From positions 20,095 to 84,094 of the forward strand of contig CAZNAX010000002.1 in the NCBI GenBank assembly GCA_964570965.1: a DNA stretch of 64,000 nt, given 5' to 3'. Source of the stretch: an uncultured Desulfatibacillum sp. GTDB taxonomy: Bacteria; Desulfobacterota; Desulfobacteria; Desulfobacterales; SpSt-501. Position numbers and translations under genes: made by a program. This document shows, one piece after another, positions 36,431 through 45,546 of this stretch; position 1 is the first letter of the stretch; every line of letters starts with the position of its first letter. The notes below the pieces were generated by a model that saw nothing but the letters and a program-made list of their open reading frames with translations, was not told the DNA's origin and did not search any database.

Positions 36431-38110
36431 CTAGTTGCCGTGGCGGCCGTCGGGATGCCCGCGGCTGAACCCCTCGATCAGATCCCAGAACAGAGTCTCC
36501 ATGCCGGGATGCGGCAGCGGCCGCATCGGCACTAGACCGGGCTTGTACCCGCGGCGCGTGAAGTTGCGGATGAAGTCCGGGTTGCCGCTGATGACGTGGA
36601 CCGGCACGGACCAGGGCTGCTCCGAATCCATGAGTTCGACGCACGGCTGGTGATCGCCGACGATGATGATCAGTCCGTTTGGGTCGATATGGCGGCGAAT
36701 GAAATCCTTCAGCAGGGTGATCACATGGGCAATGGCCGCGCTGTAGGCGGGCGATGCTTCCGGCAGCCGGATCCATCCGAAGGGAAAGCGCAACGGCGGG
36801 ATCGTGTGAAAAACCGACCCGTCGCCGATCAGATCCCAATCGTCAAGATAAGGGGCTTGGATGTCGAAGGCCGCGTGGCTGCCGGTCAAAATGACCTCGA
36901 CGAACAGCGGGCGGGCGGTGTCCTGGATGATCCGGCGGGCCACCCAGTCGAGCACGAACTGATCCGGCATGAGCGCGAAGCCGAATGTCGGGCCGCGGTA
37001 GTCAAAATCCGATGCGATCAACGTCTGTTCGTAGCGATAAAATGCGCCTTCCGGCCAGGGCCATTGGGTCCCGGGCATGGCGCGGACCGTGCGGTAGCCG
37101 GCTCGGTTGAAATAATCGGACATGGGGGCGAGGGCCGACACCAGCAACAGGTCGTGCGCGATTTGGCTGTCGATGTGAACGCCGCTGGCAAGCGTGGCGT
37201 GGGAGAGCCAGGATCCTCCGCCGAAAGTCGGCGCGGTTAAATAGGCGGAGCACATGTCGAAGCCTATGGAGCGCAGCTCGGCCTCTGTCTTCCGTGCGGC
37301 CGGAAGGACCTTGGCGGCATGGCGGGGGTCGTTGAAGGCACTCATTCCGTAAGATTCGACCACGATCAGGAACACCGACGCCCGATTCAGATCCAGCAAA
37401 TCGCCGCGGGCTCGATGGGCGCGCTCCATGGCTTCGCCAAAGAGGGCCTGGTGGTGGTTCCGGATTTCACCCAGATTCAGGATGAACTGCAATTCTTCGG
37501 TCAACCGCGGGAAAATGGACGCTTTTATGAATCCGGTCGGCGCTCCGGCGGCGACCATCCAAATCATGCCCGATAGAACTGCTACCGCCAAGCGGAGGTG
37601 CCGGTGGGCCGGTGACCGGCTGGTCAGCCCGTCATGCAGACCCTTGAGCGCCCGCCAAACGCTCCAGCCCATCGCGGCGATTCCTGCACCGGCTCCGAGG
37701 ATTCCCAACAGCACCGCCTCCGGTGGTCGGGTCCGCCAGAGCAAAATAACCAGGTCGGGCAGGCGCTGCGAATCCATAAATAGGTTGAAGGCCCGGTTGA
37801 AGACCATCGGGACCAGGCGGTCGGCCCATTGAAACAAATTGAGCAGGATCACGGACACCATGACGGCGGCGTAAGCGAGCGGTTGAAAGCTCCGGCCCGA
37901 GCGGACCAGCAGGCACATGCCGGCCAGAAGGCAGAGCCCATCCGATGACACCCGGAGCAGCGCGGACCATTCCATCTTGCCATAGGGAATCTCCAGGCAC
38001 AGAAGCGCGTTGAGGAAAAAAAACCCCGCGGTGAGCTTGAAGACCGGAAACCAGGCGCTCGGCGGCCTCTCATGTGGGGCGCGGGAAGCAAGGAAGCGGA
38101 TGGAGTCCAT
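36431..38110 (-). CDS. Membrane-anchored alkaline-phosphatase-superfamily protein (sulfatase/LTA-synthase-like)
   Basis: About 5 N-terminal TM helices, then VFLIVVESYGMSAF, TAPTFGGGSWLSH and IIIVGDHQP. The ATG at 38110 is preferred over the TTG at 38122. Confidence 0.6.
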   Translation of the reverse strand: MDSIRFLASRAPHERPPSAWFPVFKLTAGFFFLNALLCLEIPYGKMEWSALLRVSSDGLCLLAGMCLLVRSGRSFQPLAYAAVMVSVILLNLFQWADRLVPMVFNRAFNLFMDSQRLPDLVILLWRTRPPEAVLLGILGAGAGIAAMGWSVWRALKGLHDGLTSRSPAHRHLRLAVAVLSGMIWMVAAGAPTGFIKASIFPRLTEELQFILNLGEIRNHHQALFGEAMERAHRARGDLLDLNRASVFLIVVESYGMSAFNDPRHAAKVLPAARKTEAELRSIGFDMCSAYLTAPTFGGGSWLSHATLASGVHIDSQIAHDLLLVSALAPMSDYFNRAGYRTVRAMPGTQWPWPEGAFYRYEQTLIASDFDYRGPTFGFALMPDQFVLDWVARRIIQDTARPLFVEVILTGSHAAFDIQAPYLDDWDLIGDGSVFHTIPPLRFPFGWIRLPEASPAYSAAIAHVITLLKDFIRRHIDPNGLIIIVGDHQPCVELMDSEQPWSVPVHVISGNPDFIRNFTRRGYKPGLVPMRPLPHPGMETLFWDLIEGFSRGHPDGRHGN

Positions 38111-38131
38111 GACGGTTGGCAAACCTTCGGG

Positions 38132-39229
38132 TTAAGCAAAATCGGGCGGGGCCTTGGCCACTCCCTCCAGAAACTCGCACCCGCGCCGCATCGATTCCTG
38201 CCAGGAGGGGCTCGCCGAAAACGTCTTCAACGCGGCCAGACCCATTTCCGCCAGTTTTGCGCGGTTGCCATGGAGAACTTGGAGGTGGCGGCACACGGCC
38301 TCCCGGTCTCCCGCCGCCACCAGAAATCCGTTTACGGCGTGGCGCACGAATTCCCTCACTCCACCCTCTTCAGAACCGATGACCGGCAGGCCGAAGGCCA
38401 TGGCCTCGAGGGCGGCGATGCCGAAGCTCTCGTGCGCGAAGGGCATGACGAAGACCTGGGCGGCTGTAAACACGAGACGCAGGTGCTCACCGTCCACCGT
38501 ATCGAGCAATCGCACCTGCGCCTGCAGCCCCCGTCCGGAAATCAGATCTCGAATGGCACGCGCGCACTTGCGATCGGCTGTCTGGCTGCCCGCGGCGGTG
38601 AGCCGCCATATGGCGGGCGGCAAATGCGAGAGGCTTTCCAGCAGGGGCCCCAAGCCCTTGACCGGAGAAAGATTGCCGACAAACAGCAGCTCCAGCGGGC
38701 CGGGCCTCCGGCTGCGTTCAAGGATGGTTCGCTCGGATGAGATCCGGCCCAGTCGGTTTCCGGCCGGAGGGACGACCTGCATCGCAGCGTTCCGGCCCAA
38801 CAGGTTCCGGGCTGCTTCCCTGCTGAAATGGCTGGTGAACAGGCATCCGTCTACCGTTCGAAAAAAATGCCGTTCGAACAGGCTGTAGACCCAATTGAAA
38901 AGCCGGCGGCGGGGCTGCCGGCAGAGCACCTGGTGCACGACGGCGATGATCGTCGCTCGCCGTCGGGCGCGCAGGCGGCGGTTGGCGAATATCAGGGACG
39001 GGTGGCAGAGCCCGTCCTGCAGCAGCAGGTCCCAGCTGCGTTCGGTCAGCCGGGCGGTAGTTGCGTATGAAAGGTTGTCGAGAAGACACAAGGCATAGGG
39101 CTTTAAGAGCAGCGGGATCACATCCACCCGATGGCCGCGCGCCTGCAGCGCTTCCTTCAGGTAGCGGTCGTAAAGATAACCGCCCGTCAGCGTGTCGATC
39201 CGGCCGTAGATGACCAGGCCGATGCGCAT
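38132..39229 (-). CDS. Glycosyltransferase, GT-B fold (GT4 family-like)
   Basis: ATG at 39229 (MRIGLVIYGRIDTLTGGYLY). The C-terminal half carries FVMPFAHESFGIAALEAMAFGLPVIGS (an EX7E-type motif). The start shares one nt with the stop of the upstream PTPS-like gene. Confidence 0.8.
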   Translation of the reverse strand: MRIGLVIYGRIDTLTGGYLYDRYLKEALQARGHRVDVIPLLLKPYALCLLDNLSYATTARLTERSWDLLLQDGLCHPSLIFANRRLRARRRATIIAVVHQVLCRQPRRRLFNWVYSLFERHFFRTVDGCLFTSHFSREAARNLLGRNAAMQVVPPAGNRLGRISSERTILERSRRPGPLELLFVGNLSPVKGLGPLLESLSHLPPAIWRLTAAGSQTADRKCARAIRDLISGRGLQAQVRLLDTVDGEHLRLVFTAAQVFVMPFAHESFGIAALEAMAFGLPVIGSEEGGVREFVRHAVNGFLVAAGDREAVCRHLQVLHGNRAKLAEMGLAALKTFSASPSWQESMRRGCEFLEGVAKAPPDFA

Positions 39230-39606
39230 CAGATCGTTTCCGTGTAGGCCGCCCACGCATAGGGATTTTCCCAGATCGTCACGGCAACTTCGCGCAGGCG
39301 GGCGGTCGGAAACCGCAACCGCAATGCGCGGCACAGGATTCGCGCCAGATGCTCGATGCTCGGGTTGAGCCCCTGAAACGCCGGCAGATCGTTCAATGGC
39401 TTGCCGCGGACGTCGGCCAGCACCCCATCGAGTGCCGCCGACATCGCGTCGATGTCCGCCAGAAACCCGTGGGGGTCAAGTTCCTCGCCGGCCAGGCGAA
39501 ATTCGACGCGATAGGCGTGCGAATGAAGGCGGTTCTCCGGGCCGAAATCGGCTCCGATCAAATAGTGCTGCAAGATAAGCTCACGCTGTACGGCAACGCG
39601 GTACAT
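39229..39606 (-). CDS. 6-pyruvoyl-tetrahydropterin synthase/QueD-fold protein (divergent)
   Basis: ATG at 39606 (MYRVAVQRELILQHYL...NRLHSHAYRVEF...). The His triad positions are retained. The Cys of the CxxxHGH signature is Glu here (ENRLHSH). Confidence 0.6.
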   Translation of the reverse strand: MYRVAVQRELILQHYLIGADFGPENRLHSHAYRVEFRLAGEELDPHGFLADIDAMSAALDGVLADVRGKPLNDLPAFQGLNPSIEHLARILCRALRLRFPTARLREVAVTIWENPYAWAAYTETI

Positions 39607-39622
39607 CGGCGATACCTGCCTA

Positions 39623-40645
39623 TCATCCGCTATAGGTGAAAACGACCTGAAGGGCCTCTTCCGGCCTGCGATCCAGAATATCGTAGGCTTCCGCCGCACG
39701 TTCGACCGGTATTTCATGGGTGATGAGCCGGGACGGCCGAACCACCCGAAGCATGTCCCAAACCGTCTCGCCGCGCCGCCTCCGATCCCAGCGCAGCGCG
39801 AAATCCGCCGGCAGGGTGCTCACCTGGCTGGCGATCATACGGATGCGGCTGCGGTGAAAACGGCCGCCGAGATGGACCACGCTTGGCGACGCTCCATACC
39901 AGGAGCCGATGACGATGCGGCCTCCGAACCCGATCAGATCGACGGCGGCGTTCAGAGCAGATGAATCGCTCGAGAGCTCGAACACCAGATCGGACATGGC
40001 TCCGCCGGTGCTGGATGCGAGGTGCGACTTCAGAATCTCCATCTCCGGAAGGTCAAAGGCGGCCTGAGCTCCCATGTCCAGCGAGGCCTTGCGCCGGCGC
40101 GGGAGCGGGTCGACGGTAAGCAGGCCGCGCAACGGATACCGGGCGAGCAGGGCAGCGGCGAGCAGCCCCACCACTCCCTGGCCGAGGACGGCCACCGTTT
40201 CGCCGATCGTCGGCTGTCCGTCCAGCATCAGGGTGACGGCCGTCTCCATATTGGCGAAAAACAGGGCGTCGCGGTCGTCAATGCCGTCCGGAATGGGCAC
40301 CGTTTCCTCCGACTTGATGGAAAAGTGGCTGGCATGGGGGTGAAAGCAGAACACGCGGCGCCCCATCCAGTGGTCGGAGACATCCGGCCCGGTTCCGGTC
40401 ACTTGGCCGACGGCGGCATATCCGTACCGCAGCGGATAGTCCGCCCGTCCGGCCAGCGATGACAAGTCTGCGTCCATGGGCAGGTCCCGGGGCACCCGGC
40501 CGCGGTAGAACAAGAGCTCGGTGCCGGCGCTGATGGCCGAGAGATGAGTTCGGACAGCGACTTCGCCCGATTCCGGCGGCCGGAGCGCTTCACGGCCAGC
40601 ACCGATCTGGAAGGGTCCGTGCATGATGACGACGGTGCGCTTCAT
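39623..40645 (-). CDS. Medium-chain (zinc-type) dehydrogenase/reductase family protein
   Basis: ATG at 40645 (MKRTVVIMHG...). Motif LSAISAGTELLFYRG and the Rossmann motif VLGQGVVGLLAA. ATGA overlap with the upstream gene's stop. Confidence 0.7.
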   Translation of the reverse strand: MKRTVVIMHGPFQIGAGREALRPPESGEVAVRTHLSAISAGTELLFYRGRVPRDLPMDADLSSLAGRADYPLRYGYAAVGQVTGTGPDVSDHWMGRRVFCFHPHASHFSIKSEETVPIPDGIDDRDALFFANMETAVTLMLDGQPTIGETVAVLGQGVVGLLAAALLARYPLRGLLTVDPLPRRRKASLDMGAQAAFDLPEMEILKSHLASSTGGAMSDLVFELSSDSSALNAAVDLIGFGGRIVIGSWYGASPSVVHLGGRFHRSRIRMIASQVSTLPADFALRWDRRRRGETVWDMLRVVRPSRLITHEIPVERAAEAYDILDRRPEEALQVVFTYSG

Positions 40646-41403
40646 GCGGCCGTCCACCGCGGACAGTCCCATATGACAAGATCGCGCCCGAGTACTTGGT
40701 AGAAAGGCTGATGGAGATGCATGTCGAGCGCCGGCTCGGACGCTGTGGCATCGATCACAGGCAGGCCTCCCAAAAATCGCGGACTGATGGTGACGATGAT
40801 CACATCGGCAAGCTGCGACCGGAGGAAGCTGGTGATCACCCGGGCGCCGCCTTCCACCATGATGGTGTTGACCTCCCGGTCTGCCAACCAGCGCATCAAG
40901 GCGGTCAGGTCAATGCGGCCCTCCGCCGTCGTCGGGCAGGCCACCGGGTCCGCACCGGATCGCACCAGTTCACGCACTCGTTCCGGCGGGGCTTTCGGAT
41001 CATGGATCAGCCAGGGCCGCACGTCCGGGCGTCGGAGCAATCGGGCCGCAGGCGGGGTTCGCAATTGGGTGTCGAGAACGATGGGGTGCGGGTTCGGACC
41101 GCTCACCGATTGGGCCGTCAGACGGGGATCGTCCGCTAGGATGGTACCGATCCCCACCAGGATCACCTCGCATAGGGTCCGGATGGAGTAAGTGAGCTGC
41201 ATGGATTCGGGTCCGCTCAGGCGGATGCGTTCGCGGTTCCGACCGGCAATGCTGCCGTCGACGCTTTGGGCGTAGCTCAGCACCACGAATGGACGGCCTC
41301 GGTCGGCGCGGAATTCGGCCGCCAGCGACAGGATCGCGCTCAAATCCGGCAGCCCTCGAATGAGCCGGTGATGAATGGTTGAATCCGGGTGTTCTTTTTC
41401 CAT
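40642..41403 (-). CDS. RibD C-terminal-domain/dihydrofolate-reductase-like reductase
   Basis: ATG at 41403 (MEKEHP...). Motifs VVLSYAQSVDGSIAG, ILVGIGTILADDPRLT and IMVEGGARVITSF. Confidence 0.7.
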   Translation of the reverse strand: MEKEHPDSTIHHRLIRGLPDLSAILSLAAEFRADRGRPFVVLSYAQSVDGSIAGRNRERIRLSGPESMQLTYSIRTLCEVILVGIGTILADDPRLTAQSVSGPNPHPIVLDTQLRTPPAARLLRRPDVRPWLIHDPKAPPERVRELVRSGADPVACPTTAEGRIDLTALMRWLADREVNTIMVEGGARVITSFLRSQLADVIIVTISPRFLGGLPVIDATASEPALDMHLHQPFYQVLGRDLVIWDCPRWTAA

Positions 41404-41561
41404 CGCTTCGATACGCAACGTTTGAACGTTCGGGGATGAGGCATGGATTGACTCAGTGGGCTGATTGAGCCAGGTGCATCATCGGCAAGGCTGCCCTAAA
41501 CCGGATGCGAACCATTGGCGTCCGCATCCCTTTTGCCCGCTAACACGCTGCCTTCCGGTTG

Positions 41562-42653
41562 TCATATGCGCGGGCGGCCGGCTCCCGTGAACATCAGGGC
41601 CTGCGCGGCCATCAAGCCGACGGTGGCCGCGCAGGCCGGCAGGTTTGGGACCAGCCAAAGCGCGTATGACACGCTTAATAGCATTGCAGCCGCACGCGCG
41701 ACAACCCCCAATACGCACAAGGCCGTGCATGCCAGCACCCCCACCCGTACGAGCAGGGGCACATTTCCCCAGCGGTCATCCGGCGATGCGTAAAAAGTCA
41801 GGCACAGACTGGCTGCAAGAGTGAGTCGCAAGATCAGCGGCAGGCTGCAGGCCAGTCGCTTTCCAAAGAAATTCAGTGCGCGTGACAGGGCGCTACCGAC
41901 TCCTGCGGCGGGGCCGCAGACGATATGCCAGTCTCGACCCAGACTGAGCCCCATCGCAAGGGTCATGACCCATGCCGCTGGCCGCGTGGCCTCCGGCTTG
42001 AAAACCGGCAACAGCGCCAATCCGGCCGTGGCCATTACGCATCCGGCGATCCACCGGGCATCCGGCCGCGGGGGCACGGGGTGGACCGAACAGCCGGCGC
42101 CGCGACGCAGATGGATCGCAACCCGGAGCACGTAGTAGCCGATCCCGACCCAGAGATAGGGCAGCGGAGCTTTAGCGCTCAACACCAGCAGCAAAGCGGC
42201 CAGGAGCAACCCGAGGGCATCGATCTGGGTGTCGAGATAGACTCCCAGGCGTGTGATGTTGTGGGTGATGCGGGCGACTTGGCCGTCGAGGAAATCCAGA
42301 GCTGCCACGGAAAGGTAGACAATTCCCGGTAGCCATTCCCAGAAGGTTCCCGCCCCAACGATCGGTGCCTGGAAAAGAAATCCGGCCAGGGTCGCTGTCA
42401 GTACCGCGCGGGCGATGGTGACAAGGTTGGCGGCGCCGAGAGTTGGACGCAGTCGAGGGTCGCCGGGGGGATGATTGCGATGCAGATGCTTTCGCAGCTG
42501 CCAAAGAAACCCGGCTAAAACCAAGGCAGCGGGAAGGCTCCACCGCATGGCCGCATGGAGACTGATCCCTGCCGTCAGGACGCCGGCGACGCCGAGGGCA
42601 TAGGTGCCGCAGATCGCCGCAAGGACTGCCCACTGACGCCTAAGGCGTTCCAT
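41562..42653 (-). CDS. CDP-alcohol phosphatidyltransferase family membrane protein with extended C-terminal TM region
   Basis: DFLDGQVARITHNITRLGVYLDTQIDALG matches DG(x)2AR(x)8G(x)3D(x)3D. Polytopic. ATG at 42653; an alternative GTG at 42674 would overlap the sbcB stop. Confidence 0.8.
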   Translation of the reverse strand: MERLRRQWAVLAAICGTYALGVAGVLTAGISLHAAMRWSLPAALVLAGFLWQLRKHLHRNHPPGDPRLRPTLGAANLVTIARAVLTATLAGFLFQAPIVGAGTFWEWLPGIVYLSVAALDFLDGQVARITHNITRLGVYLDTQIDALGLLLAALLLVLSAKAPLPYLWVGIGYYVLRVAIHLRRGAGCSVHPVPPRPDARWIAGCVMATAGLALLPVFKPEATRPAAWVMTLAMGLSLGRDWHIVCGPAAGVGSALSRALNFFGKRLACSLPLILRLTLAASLCLTFYASPDDRWGNVPLLVRVGVLACTALCVLGVVARAAAMLLSVSYALWLVPNLPACAATVGLMAAQALMFTGAGRPRI

Positions 42654-42670: not shown

Positions 42671-44110
42671 TCACGTTGAACCTTGGTCGAGGACTGTATT
42701 GAAACGGTCTTTGATGTAATGTTCCAAGTCCGTCAAGATATCCGCTGGTTCGGTGTGGGGATCGGTGGACTGCTGCAACTGCCTGATTTCAGACAACGCG
42801 GATTGGGGGCACCGGCGCGGGATGCCGGTGAAATCCAGCGCCGGTTCTCCGGCGTGTATGCGCTCCAGAAAAGCGGCGGACTCGGTGCGAAGCCGGTCGG
42901 GCAGTTCGGCTGAAAAGTTTCGGAACAGCACCCGAGCGGCCAGGCAGCGAACCTCGCGTCCGGCGAAACAATCGAGGATATCGGCCTTCGCGGGCAGATC
43001 GGCGGCGTGGAACTCCCGGCACAAGGCCTCGTCCGGCTTCGCGAAGAAGCCGTTTTGGTAGAGGCCGGCGTCGGCGTCCAGGTCCGGTATGAACGGGTAA
43101 CGGTAGCGGCGATGATGACGGATGATGCTCTCCAAAAGATGCGGATGGGACTCGAGCCATGCAAGGTTTTCTTGCATGCATTGCCGGCGATCGGGGTCGA
43201 TCCGCTGGATATAGCGTGCATGGGGCGGAAGCAGGACGGCCGGCTCTCCGAAACGCTTGCGGGTCACCCAGGTGGTATCGGCCACGGTTTCGAGTCGGGT
43301 CTCCCGCAGGCTGGGTAGGTCCAGGCGCAGCCAGAGGGTCTGCTTGGGATAGGGAATTGAATTGCCGATCGACAGCACCGGCACCTGAAACGCCAGGCGG
43401 GTGCCGAATTCGCTGGCCGTCATCAGCCCCAATCGATGAGGCCCCATGCTGCTCTGGATCACAGCGGGAAGCTCTTCGGCACGCTGAGCATCCACATCCT
43501 TGCTGAAACAACCCTCCAGGTATTGCCACATCTTTTGATCGCTGAAGAGAATCCGAGCGAGCCTTAAAGATGCCTCCGCGTCGGACATGGCATCGTGGGA
43601 CGGGCCGGTGAACAACCCGTTGAGCATTCCGATGTCCTCCAGTTTCAAAGAGGCTTTGCCGCTGGGCACTGGCCATTGCAAGGCGTGGCTGCGGTAGAGC
43701 CAGTAAATGATGGTGATGGGCAGGAGGTCCATCCGCCGGCAGTGGTTGGCATATTGATGGGTGTAAGGTGGCAGCAGGTTCCGGTAAAAGGAGAACCGTA
43801 AAAACTCGTCATCGAATCCGATCGAGTTGTAGCCGATACTCGTGGTTCCCGGCCGGTTCACCTGCGCATGGATTTCTCTCATCGCCGCGTATTCGTTGCG
43901 CCCCGACAAGAAGCGCTCGGCGCGGATGCGGTTGACCAGAATGGCCTGGGGGGAGGGAATCACATCCGGCCGCAGCCGAATCCGCACACTGAAGCGCTCG
44001 CTCTCATTCAGTTGGAGGTCGGTGCGGATGGCCGCAAATTCGAGGACCTGGTCAAACGCCCGATTCAGTCCCGAAGTTTCGGTGTCGTAGAAGAGAAAAG
44101 AGCCGGCCAT
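42671..44110 (-). CDS. sbcB: Exodeoxyribonuclease I
   Basis: 479 aa. FLFYDTETSGLNRAFDQVLEFAAIRTD (Exo I motif), HDAMSDAEA (Exo III motif), and an SbcB-type C-terminal domain of the expected length. Confidence 0.88.
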   Translation of the reverse strand: MAGSFLFYDTETSGLNRAFDQVLEFAAIRTDLQLNESERFSVRIRLRPDVIPSPQAILVNRIRAERFLSGRNEYAAMREIHAQVNRPGTTSIGYNSIGFDDEFLRFSFYRNLLPPYTHQYANHCRRMDLLPITIIYWLYRSHALQWPVPSGKASLKLEDIGMLNGLFTGPSHDAMSDAEASLRLARILFSDQKMWQYLEGCFSKDVDAQRAEELPAVIQSSMGPHRLGLMTASEFGTRLAFQVPVLSIGNSIPYPKQTLWLRLDLPSLRETRLETVADTTWVTRKRFGEPAVLLPPHARYIQRIDPDRRQCMQENLAWLESHPHLLESIIRHHRRYRYPFIPDLDADAGLYQNGFFAKPDEALCREFHAADLPAKADILDCFAGREVRCLAARVLFRNFSAELPDRLRTESAAFLERIHAGEPALDFTGIPRRCPQSALSEIRQLQQSTDPHTEPADILTDLEHYIKDRFNTVLDQGST

Positions 44111-44255: not shown

Positions 44256-45368
44256 TTATTGCGTCGTGATGACCAGATCGTCGTGGCCGTAGCCGAACTC
44301 GGTCAGGAGATCGCCAACGGTCTTGACGATTTCGTCGGGGGGAAGCTTGGTTTCTACGTAGATGTTCGTCTTGCGGATTTTTTCCGGAATTCTCAGCTGG
44401 TCCGAATAGCGCGAGAAACAAGGCTTCAGGTCGTCATAGAGCCAGAGCACTTTTTCGAAATCCTGGGGGTGAGCGGAGGCGAAGCAGTTGCATAGCGTGG
44501 TCAACATGTCCTCCCAGGTTTTTGCCGGATACGTGTTGCCTTGAAAGCTGAAGGAAGAAATCGTTTTGTCCGCAAAAAACTCGGGTTTCTTGGTTTTAAT
44601 ATCGGAGCTGTTGTCGGAGAGCACGGGGAAGGATGGTGCGACCCGCGCGCCGGACGGGGAAGAGGGCGGTGGAGCGGGGGCGTGCTCACGTGCAAGCGTC
44701 CAGTGTTCGAAATGGGCACGGATGAACGCTTCGACCATACCCGGATCGGCCTTATAACCGCAGATCTTCTCGGTCGCGTCGCTTAAAATTTCCACCAGAA
44801 TTTTATTCGGCCCTGTCAGTACCCGGTTCCAGGCATCCGGCAGGACATCGGCCGCCATTTTTCGCTTATGTTTCTGATAGGCCGCTTTGGCCGATTCAAG
44901 GTATTCACCGCTGACGATCTTCTCCCGGCTCAAAAAGGCCATTAGATCTAAAGCCATGTCCTCCGGTTTTTGTTCGAACAAGTCGCAGACATGGCAACGT
45001 TTCTGTGCCAAGGAGCCCTTGGCTGTCGGCAGGTAGAACCACCAGCGGGCCCCATCGGTGTGCGCGGCAAGGTCAACTGCTTCGCGGGCGGCAAATGCGA
45101 CGAGCTGCTTATGAAGCTCATCCGGGTTTTCCCCAGTGCGCTTTACGTCCAGAATCATTTTGCCGATGCCGTCGATGCGCAACGCATAGGACACCGTAAC
45201 AGACTCCGAGGAAAAATCCGGGTAGACCTCCTCCACGTTGAAAATATCCCAGCCCAGCAGTGACAGCAATCTTAAAGCGACGGCCTGCTTGATCGAGGCC
45301 TCATCGAGGGAATGCATTTTCTTATTCGATTTGAGGTCTTTGACAAAGGCCATGACCGGCTTTTTCAT
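44256..45368 (-). CDS. Hypothetical protein with N-terminal HsdR-N/PD-(D/E)xK-like domain
   Basis: ATG at 45368 after GGAGGA. EASIKQAVALRLLSLLGWDI...VSYALRIDGIGKMILDVKRTG resembles type I restriction HsdR N-terminal-like nuclease folds. I do not recognise the remaining ~250 aa. Confidence 0.5.
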   Translation of the reverse strand: MKKPVMAFVKDLKSNKKMHSLDEASIKQAVALRLLSLLGWDIFNVEEVYPDFSSESVTVSYALRIDGIGKMILDVKRTGENPDELHKQLVAFAAREAVDLAAHTDGARWWFYLPTAKGSLAQKRCHVCDLFEQKPEDMALDLMAFLSREKIVSGEYLESAKAAYQKHKRKMAADVLPDAWNRVLTGPNKILVEILSDATEKICGYKADPGMVEAFIRAHFEHWTLAREHAPAPPPSSPSGARVAPSFPVLSDNSSDIKTKKPEFFADKTISSFSFQGNTYPAKTWEDMLTTLCNCFASAHPQDFEKVLWLYDDLKPCFSRYSDQLRIPEKIRKTNIYVETKLPPDEIVKTVGDLLTEFGYGHDDLVITTQ

Positions 45369-45546
45369 GACATCCTCCAGACACAAGTACAGAACTTGTC
45401 GACGCGGCAGAAAGCGCCTGCAATGCCGCCTGTTGCCTATATCGGTCACCTCTTTTCAAGACTTGAGTGACGGCGCATGCTCCGGCTCATGTTTTAGTCG
45501 TCGGTGGCGATATCTTTTAAGACACGTTTCGATCGGAGGCGACGCG

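Follow-up and report, generated by a model that had tools for sequence, protein, structure and literature searches.

The 64,000-nt stretch of DNA analyzed here from an uncultured Desulfatibacillum sp. (the whole stretch is called the window below, and all coordinates are on its numbering) carries six co-directional minus-strand genes between positions 36431 and 42653. They encode a CDP-alcohol phosphatidyltransferase-family membrane protein (CDP-OH), a stand-alone RibD_C-type reductase, an atypical MDR dehydrogenase, a T-fold (PTPS/QueD-family) protein, a GT4 glycosyltransferase and a membrane-anchored sulfatase-like protein (Table 1). The gene set was read from an open reading frame (ORF) listing, Pfam and NCBIfam scans and direct reading of the minus strand, and all six ORFs and domain calls named in the initial annotation of this DNA proved to be real. 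The six genes are a conserved module, with the same gene order in dozens of genomes across the Desulfobacterota and Chloroflexota.

Table 1. Positions of the six cluster genes and of the one long spacer, in order of transcription
Feature	Position	Strand	Length	Basis
CDP-alcohol phosphatidyltransferase-family membrane protein (CDP-OH)	41562-42653	minus	363 aa	PF01066
CDP-OH/RibD_C spacer	41404-41561	minus	158 nt	read from sequence
Stand-alone RibD_C-type reductase	40642-41403	minus	253 aa	PF01872
Atypical MDR dehydrogenase (ADH_zinc_N)	39623-40645	minus	340 aa	PF00107
T-fold (PTPS/QueD-family) protein	39229-39606	minus	125 aa	PF01242
GT4 glycosyltransferase (GT-B, retaining-type, soluble)	38132-39229	minus	365 aa	PF00534
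Membrane-anchored alkaline-phosphatase-superfamily (sulfatase-like) protein	36431-38110	minus	559 aa	PF00884 (below cut-off), fold

Most of the tight packing described in the initial annotation is present: the MDR start overlaps the RibD_C stop in an ATGA (40642-40645), the T-fold and GT4 genes meet in a TGATG with base 39229 common to both, and gaps of 16 and 21 nt separate MDR from T-fold and GT4 from the sulfatase-like gene, respectively. The CDP-OH/RibD_C junction had also been given a gap of 16-21 nt, and here the description was wrong: the CDP-OH stop (41562) lies 158 nt from the RibD_C ATG at 41403 (143 nt if the TTG at 41418 is used), so this junction is not tightly packed. The full-length RibD_C start is backed by end-to-end alignment with relatives. 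A regulatory RNA was sought in the spacer, and there was no Rfam match in the whole window; the folding z-score of the spacer (-0.96) is not unusual, and its sequence is poorly conserved in relatives. Promoter and terminator scans did no better than shuffled sequences.

The conservation of the cluster was followed through the T-fold protein, for which a word-indexed search found 325 close homologues and an exhaustive search of 50%-identity representatives found 1454 at E <= 0.001 and 245 at E <= 1e-10. In a scan of one genome per species, relatives were encoded in at least 560 species genomes, and the best 80 of these loci (mainly from Chloroflexota, namely Anaerolineae and Caldilineaceae, and Desulfobacterota) were fetched; partners were counted by tblastn of the cluster proteins against these 80 loci and by ORF clustering with Pfam. 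The T-fold gene (80/80 loci) is accompanied by GT4 in 77, MDR in 59, a class I methyltransferase in 58, RibD_C in 56, GTP cyclohydrolase II in 38, the MprF-type flippase-like protein LPG_synthase_TM in 27 and CDP-OH in 26; ORF clustering also found a PlsC-type acyltransferase in 9 loci and small membrane proteins of the DUF7475 and DUF420 families. The partners are nearly always on one strand and in one order, and in many loci the GT4 match starts right at the T-fold stop. For example, a chloroflexotal locus (L009) has the full order CDP-OH, LPG_synthase_TM, DUF7475, GTP cyclohydrolase II, RibD_C, MDR, T-fold, GT4, methyltransferase. Where T-fold, GT4 and methyltransferase stand alone, an MDR orthologue was found elsewhere in three of the five genomes tested, and in two of these it sits inside a GTP cyclohydrolase II-RibD_C-MDR block (one such block also has CDP-OH and a methyltransferase), so that the set is co-retained even when it is split. 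An order that recurs in dozens of genomes of two phyla is far beyond chance, and the genes are co-conserved as a module.

Within the class to which the window belongs the distribution is patchy and accessory-like: the T-fold gene was found in only 8 of 201 sampled genomes, among them all 4 from the window's genus and 3 from three further families. The seven other clusters in the class have the order CDP-OH, [LPG_synthase_TM], RibD_C, MDR, [PEMT], T-fold, GT4, [methyltransferase], sulfatase-like, where brackets mark genes that are not in all of them. Every one of the seven has a CDP-OH orthologue, and a sulfatase-like protein follows GT4 in 8/8 cluster-bearing genomes of the class (four families), with 38-75% identity to that of the window in the other seven. 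GTP cyclohydrolase II is missing from all seven clusters, but each of the five relatives tested encodes a single enzyme of this activity, of the RibBA type, elsewhere in its genome. Two genomes of the same genus have their T-fold match inside an open frame of 514-515 aa (G032:C27:105410-105778 and G101:C22:722-1087), which suggests read-through or fusion with a neighboring gene (MDR or GT4).

The conserved genes do not fall into subfamilies of queuosine, riboflavin or ordinary phospholipid synthesis; all NCBIfam equivalog scores are under their cut-offs. The T-fold protein belongs to the PTPS/QueD superfamily (PF01242, 81.7 bits versus a cut-off of 22.4) and has the signature G-x-E-x3-H-x-H. 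Across 19 relatives, residues H14, E24, H28, H30, E85 and E113 vary little or not at all, and they are kept in 116-131 of 134 sequences (the query plus 133 50%-identity representatives). H14, H28 and H30 are the predicted zinc-binding histidine triad and E113 the predicted ring-anchoring glutamate; the conservation of the triad and of Glu24, Glu85 and Glu113 indicates that the zinc site and ring anchor are intact, with a glutamate in place of the QueD cysteine. The named PTPS classes were tried against this sequence as follows: QueD/PTPS-I scores too low (TIGR03367, 35.5 bits versus 89.25) and its CxxxHGH reads ENRLHSH, with Glu in 116/134 sequences; the PTPS-II motif CxxxxxHGH fails since the His pair has no Cys upstream; the PTPS-III motif ExxHGH fails on two counts, with the Glu four instead of three residues ahead of the first His and with Ser, Ala or Thr instead of Gly as the middle residue (motifs from PMC5041015); and the PTPS-IV signature FGPAQ (PMC5445326) reads FGPEN in the window, with Ala at that place in only 6 of 134 close representatives. 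The best relative in the PDB is SCO6650 (3D7J), which aligns end-to-end at E 1e-11. A separate and better PTPS/QueD-family paralogue is encoded on another contig (C14) of the same genome.

The RibD_C protein (PF01872, 132.7 bits) is just below the TIGR00227 cut-off (148.8 bits versus 150.15) and farther below that of TIGR01508 (124.7 versus 186.45). Its nearest solved relatives are reductases of 2,5-diamino-6-ribosylamino-4(3H)-pyrimidinone 5'-phosphate (DARPP), 6P8C (E 2e-28), 2AZN and 4HA7, and in the same PDB search the match to the DHFR-like Rv2671 is far weaker, so by homology it is probably a DARPP reductase. RibD_C orthologues adjoin GTP cyclohydrolase II in 38 of the 80 loci, and in 12 loci (L076:7413-8855 and 11 others, mostly in Caldilineaceae) the two form fusion proteins of ~470-480 aa. 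This adjacency and fusion, the closeness of the reductase to DARPP reductases and the absence of PTPS-I, -II and -III signatures together make it most likely that the precursor is the first riboflavin intermediate, not dihydroneopterin triphosphate.

The MDR protein matches PF00107 (37.8 bits), and its best NCBIfam match, BchC (74.6 bits), is far under cut-off; matches in the PDB cover only the cofactor domain of polyol and alcohol dehydrogenases. It has the Rossmann motif GQGVVG (GxGxxG) and, like NAD-dependent polyol dehydrogenases, an Asp that ends the second strand. The 56 orthologues share no conserved Cys, and Ala and Tyr stand where Cys and His are usual, so, as judged from the alignment, the enzyme lacks catalytic zinc ligands. 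The glycosyltransferase matches PF00534 (97.3 bits), and its best PDB relatives, the sucrose-phosphate synthase (SPS) Tll1590, MshA and BshA, use small phosphorylated or acidic acceptors.

CDP-OH matches PF01066 (48.5 bits versus a cut-off of 22), so it is a member of that family, and is polytopic, with about seven hydrophobic segments. The motif Dx2DGx2ARx8Gx3Dx3D is intact at residues 120-145, as DFLDGQVARITHNITRLGVYLDTQID, and its residues are invariant across 24 orthologues. The PgsA, PIP synthase and ClsA equivalogs of NCBIfam were rejected, with 20-33 bits against cut-offs of 109-240. The protein is 363-427 aa long in relatives, about twice the length of PgsA or PIP synthases, and past the Pfam domain it has a C-terminal extension of about three extra hydrophobic segments with conserved Arg and Gly. 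Other membrane proteins recur beside it. A PEMT-family integral-membrane methyltransferase lies between MDR and T-fold in three clusters (L088:10494-11189, L037:9209-9853 and L092:9469-9891), apparently taking the place that the soluble class I methyltransferase has in other clusters, and in other organisms a PEMT/ICMT-family methyltransferase is fused N-terminally to homologues of the sulfatase-like protein (P0229 and P0231, 746 aa).

The sulfatase-like protein itself scores under cut-off in Pfam (PF00884, 22.9 bits versus 25) and is labeled only as a generic sulfatase in the ESM Atlas. It has five N-terminal transmembrane helices by hydropathy and in its AlphaFold2 model (mean predicted local distance difference test, pLDDT, 79). 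Foldseek places LtaP, LtaS, GacH, MCR-1, EptA, EptC and PbgA together with sulfatases at the top of its matches, the first five at E ~1e-8 to 1e-7. Residues E252, T295, H412, D486 and H487 are invariant in 26 homologues, and in the model they sit at the strand ends where the superfamily holds its metal ligands and nucleophile. The protein thus looks, from its modeled fold, like a phospho-head-group transferase of the LtaS/EptA type. A GT4-sulfatase-like fusion (P0194) was given little weight; it is an N-terminally cut protein on a single contig. Among the new pieces of the cluster, the two partners specific to this lineage (LtaS/EptA-like and PEMT) are the most informative.

These genes clearly travel together, and what might their products make? 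From the observed gene content, conservation, fusions and family assignments we infer the following chemistry. (1) The housekeeping RibBA (GTP cyclohydrolase II), or the in-cluster copy that relatives carry, would convert GTP to DARPP. (2) The stand-alone RibD_C protein would reduce this product before deamination to a 2-amino ribityl compound, which lies off the bacterial riboflavin route and is not normally bacterial because RibD deaminates first. (3) The zinc-less MDR and the zinc-binding T-fold enzyme would then rework the ribityl-phosphate side chain by redox and phosphate chemistry and may close a pterin ring, given that GTP cyclohydrolase I cyclizes the same intermediate, a 2'-keto ribityl chain. 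(4) GT4 would add a sugar, after which most relatives would methylate the product with a soluble or PEMT-type membrane methyltransferase. (5) CDP-OH would join the resulting alcohol to CDP-diacylglycerol to give a new phospholipid; this donor is favored because no cytidylyltransferase gene accompanies the cluster in any locus. The third to fifth steps are given in the order that we propose for them. (6) The lipid would be flipped across the membrane, and (7) in Desulfobacteria the LtaS/EptA-like protein, with its domain outside the membrane, would move the phospho-head group to a putative envelope acceptor.

Our preferred reading is thus that the six genes are a compact copy, of Desulfobacteria type, of a widespread cluster that makes a phospholipid head group out of a GTP-derived glycoside (of an aminopyrimidine or a pterin), and that in this lineage the head group is moved outward to the envelope; we give this reading about an even chance (roughly 50%) of being correct. 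A lipid-linked product is favored by the recurrent membrane partners (CDP-OH, flippase-like, PlsC-type, PEMT-type and LtaS/EptA-like), so the phospho-linked, membrane-associated product that the initial annotation had raised is still the best reading. Its analogy to BGluT-type pterin glycoside systems is not supported as stated. Such systems combine GTP cyclohydrolase I and PTPS-II with a pterin reductase and a pteridine glycosyltransferase, whereas relatives of this cluster carry GTP cyclohydrolase II, the reductase is closest to DARPP reductases and the T-fold protein lacks the PTPS-II motif; most likely the pathway branches off riboflavin synthesis instead. More tentatively, the cluster could make an undescribed class of phospholipid in several phyla, with a glycosylated and often methylated aminopyrimidine or pterin head group, and in Desulfobacteria a new and very divergent LtaS/EptA-like branch could use this lipid as the donor from which an envelope component receives the phospho-head group.

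Nearly identical DNA was found in metagenomes from 13 studies, covering freshwater sediment, soil/wetland and hot springs. Six exact contigs from one wetland metatranscriptome lie on the GT4, RibD_C and CDP-OH genes, and one of the six (41448-41593) extends from the 3' end of CDP-OH into the spacer; these contigs are a weak hint of transcription and read-through, and cluster parts that such contigs do not cover are not thereby silent.

Several observations weigh against the lipid head-group reading. Only about one-third of the loci have the CDP-OH and flippase-like genes within 10 kb, so the product of the core could be soluble. Genes for GTP cyclohydrolase II, a methyltransferase and a flippase-like protein are missing from the window's own cluster, and the 92%-complete assembly of its genome has no PF00925 (GTP cyclohydrolase II) match; the latter is probably an assembly gap, given that the full bifunctional RibD is on a contig of only 5.9 kb, the end of which probably interrupts the riboflavin operon. 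A PDB sequence search with the family profile of the sulfatase-like protein found no relative, and Foldseek ranks true sulfatases beside the phosphotransferases. Zinc-less MDRs are often ene- or quinone reductases and not alcohol dehydrogenases, which makes the type of reaction in the third step uncertain. The RNA contigs come from one run, in which DNA carry-over is possible. Finally, no paper naming the product or describing the cluster was found in the literature searched.

The first of these points bears on the alternative that survives best, in which the core (reductase, MDR, T-fold and GT4, with or without the methyltransferase) makes a soluble aminopyrimidine or pterin glycoside, similar to the pterin glycosides of cyanobacteria or Chlorobium or to the plant pyrimidine glucosides vicine and convicine, while CDP-OH and the sulfatase-like protein have a separate lipid or envelope job. 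We judge this unlikely but serious, because the membrane genes are near in so few loci: T-fold and GT4 are the tightest pair (77/80) and CDP-OH is nearby in only 26/80, the solved GT4 relatives act on small phosphorylated or acidic acceptors, and vicine is a known pyrimidine glucoside of this origin (in faba bean, vicine and convicine start from the GTP cyclohydrolase II product; bioRxiv 10.1101/2020.02.26.966523). On the other hand, CDP-OH is in 8/8 clusters of the class, a split GTP cyclohydrolase II-RibD_C-MDR block includes it too, membrane enzymes of the flippase-like, PlsC and PEMT types turn up repeatedly within the cluster, and CDP-OH scores under every housekeeping equivalog cut-off.

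It is considerably less probable that the cluster makes a pterin cofactor (of folate, biopterin or methanopterin type) without GTP cyclohydrolase I or belongs to deazaflavin (F420) or riboflavin metabolism. GTP cyclohydrolase II, the reductase and a C2' oxidation would formally yield dihydroneopterin phosphate; PTPS-III and PTPS-VI act in folate synthesis, and PTPS-IV is tied to F420 in archaea by unpublished work cited in PMC5041015; and no PF01227 (GTP cyclohydrolase I) match was found in the window's own 92%-complete assembly. That genome does, however, encode FolE2 and the QueD-like paralogue, so that there is no hole to be filled, and no CofD was found in it, which counts against an F420 link; FolE2, the paralogue and the full bifunctional RibD are on contigs C196, C3 and C14. 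Tight coupling to GT4, a methyltransferase and membrane enzymes has no place in cofactor pathways, and presence in 8 of 201 genomes of the class is unlike an essential one. That the six are simply unrelated neighbors packed by genome compaction is scarcely credible: the 158-nt gap between the first and second genes and an unrelated sbcB-like gene 17 nt upstream on the same strand would fit it, but the order is kept across two phyla, GTP cyclohydrolase II-RibD_C and PEMT-sulfatase-like fusions occur, and split clusters are co-retained.

If the lipid head-group reading is true, a branch at the first step of riboflavin synthesis feeds an undescribed membrane or envelope component in hundreds of species, among them abundant bacteria of sediment, soil and wastewater. 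It would add a new head-group chemistry to bacterial lipids and give a function to a large orphan T-fold clade (ExxxHxH motif) and to a divergent LtaS/EptA-like clade, and the cluster is small and directly testable.

The sbcB-like exonuclease I gene (42671-44110, minus strand) that ends 17 nt upstream of the CDP-OH start scores 193.7 bits with NF008746, below the cut-off of 260, and upstream of it is a 397-aa ORF (44256-45449, minus strand) with no Pfam match. The synteny of the two with the cluster does not extend beyond the window's genus (four related genomes), so neither is likely to belong to the pathway. One further locus (L003; JBLMXM010000085.1, labeled Hyphomicrobiales bacterium MAG256) has the order sbcB, CDP-OH, RibD_C, MDR, T-fold, GT4, sulfatase-like, as in the Desulfobacterales copies, at 51-69% identity; its alphaproteobacterial label seems to reflect either a binning error or a recent transfer.

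How does this cluster compare with known systems? The early riboflavin route of archaea and fungi, in which GTP cyclohydrolase II (or ArfA/ArfB) is followed by a DARPP reductase, has the closest solved relatives of the RibD_C protein, which stands alone without a deaminase domain. It differs in that no deaminase, lumazine synthase or riboflavin synthase follows the reductase in the window, the TIGR00227 and TIGR01508 scores are just below and well below cut-off, respectively, and the genome keeps a normal bifunctional RibD.

The nearest solved relative of the T-fold protein, SCO6650 of Streptomyces coelicolor, is an orphan of the PTPS-IV subfamily of COG0720 and reads FGPAQRLHGA where the window reads FGPENRLHSH; it thus lacks the Glu and the third zinc-binding His. 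SCO6650 is reported by Spoonamore et al. (2006/2008) to lie near a GTP cyclohydrolase II paralogue. In the literature searched, SCO6650 is not mentioned and SCO6655 is mentioned once, in an unrelated metabolic-modeling paper.

The LtaS, GacH, EptA, MCR-1 and OpgB type of enzyme shares with the modeled sulfatase-like protein five transmembrane helices and an extracytoplasmic alkaline-phosphatase-fold domain, and supplies its top fold matches; it differs in that no solved member has a detectable sequence relation to the protein and sulfatases score equally by fold. The logic of phosphatidylinositol, phosphatidylinositol mannoside (PIM) and mycothiol synthesis is similar in that a CDP-OH with the full motif stands beside a GT4 related to MshA, and the weak best NCBIfam matches of CDP-OH are archaetidylinositol-phosphate and PIP synthases. 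In contrast to that logic, the cluster has no inositol-phosphate synthase, its CDP-OH scores are far under the equivalog cut-offs, and the proposed alcohol would be GTP-derived and not a cyclitol. Lastly, the pterin glycosides (those of cyanobacterial BGluT/PgtA and the limipterin and tepidopterin of Chlorobium) and vicine and convicine have in common with the proposed product that a GTP-derived heterocycle is glycosylated; those products are soluble, the pterin glycosides among them begin with GTP cyclohydrolase I and PTPS-II, and no such synthesis is known to use the CDP-alcohol transferases, flippase-like proteins and LtaS-like proteins that mark the clusters described here.

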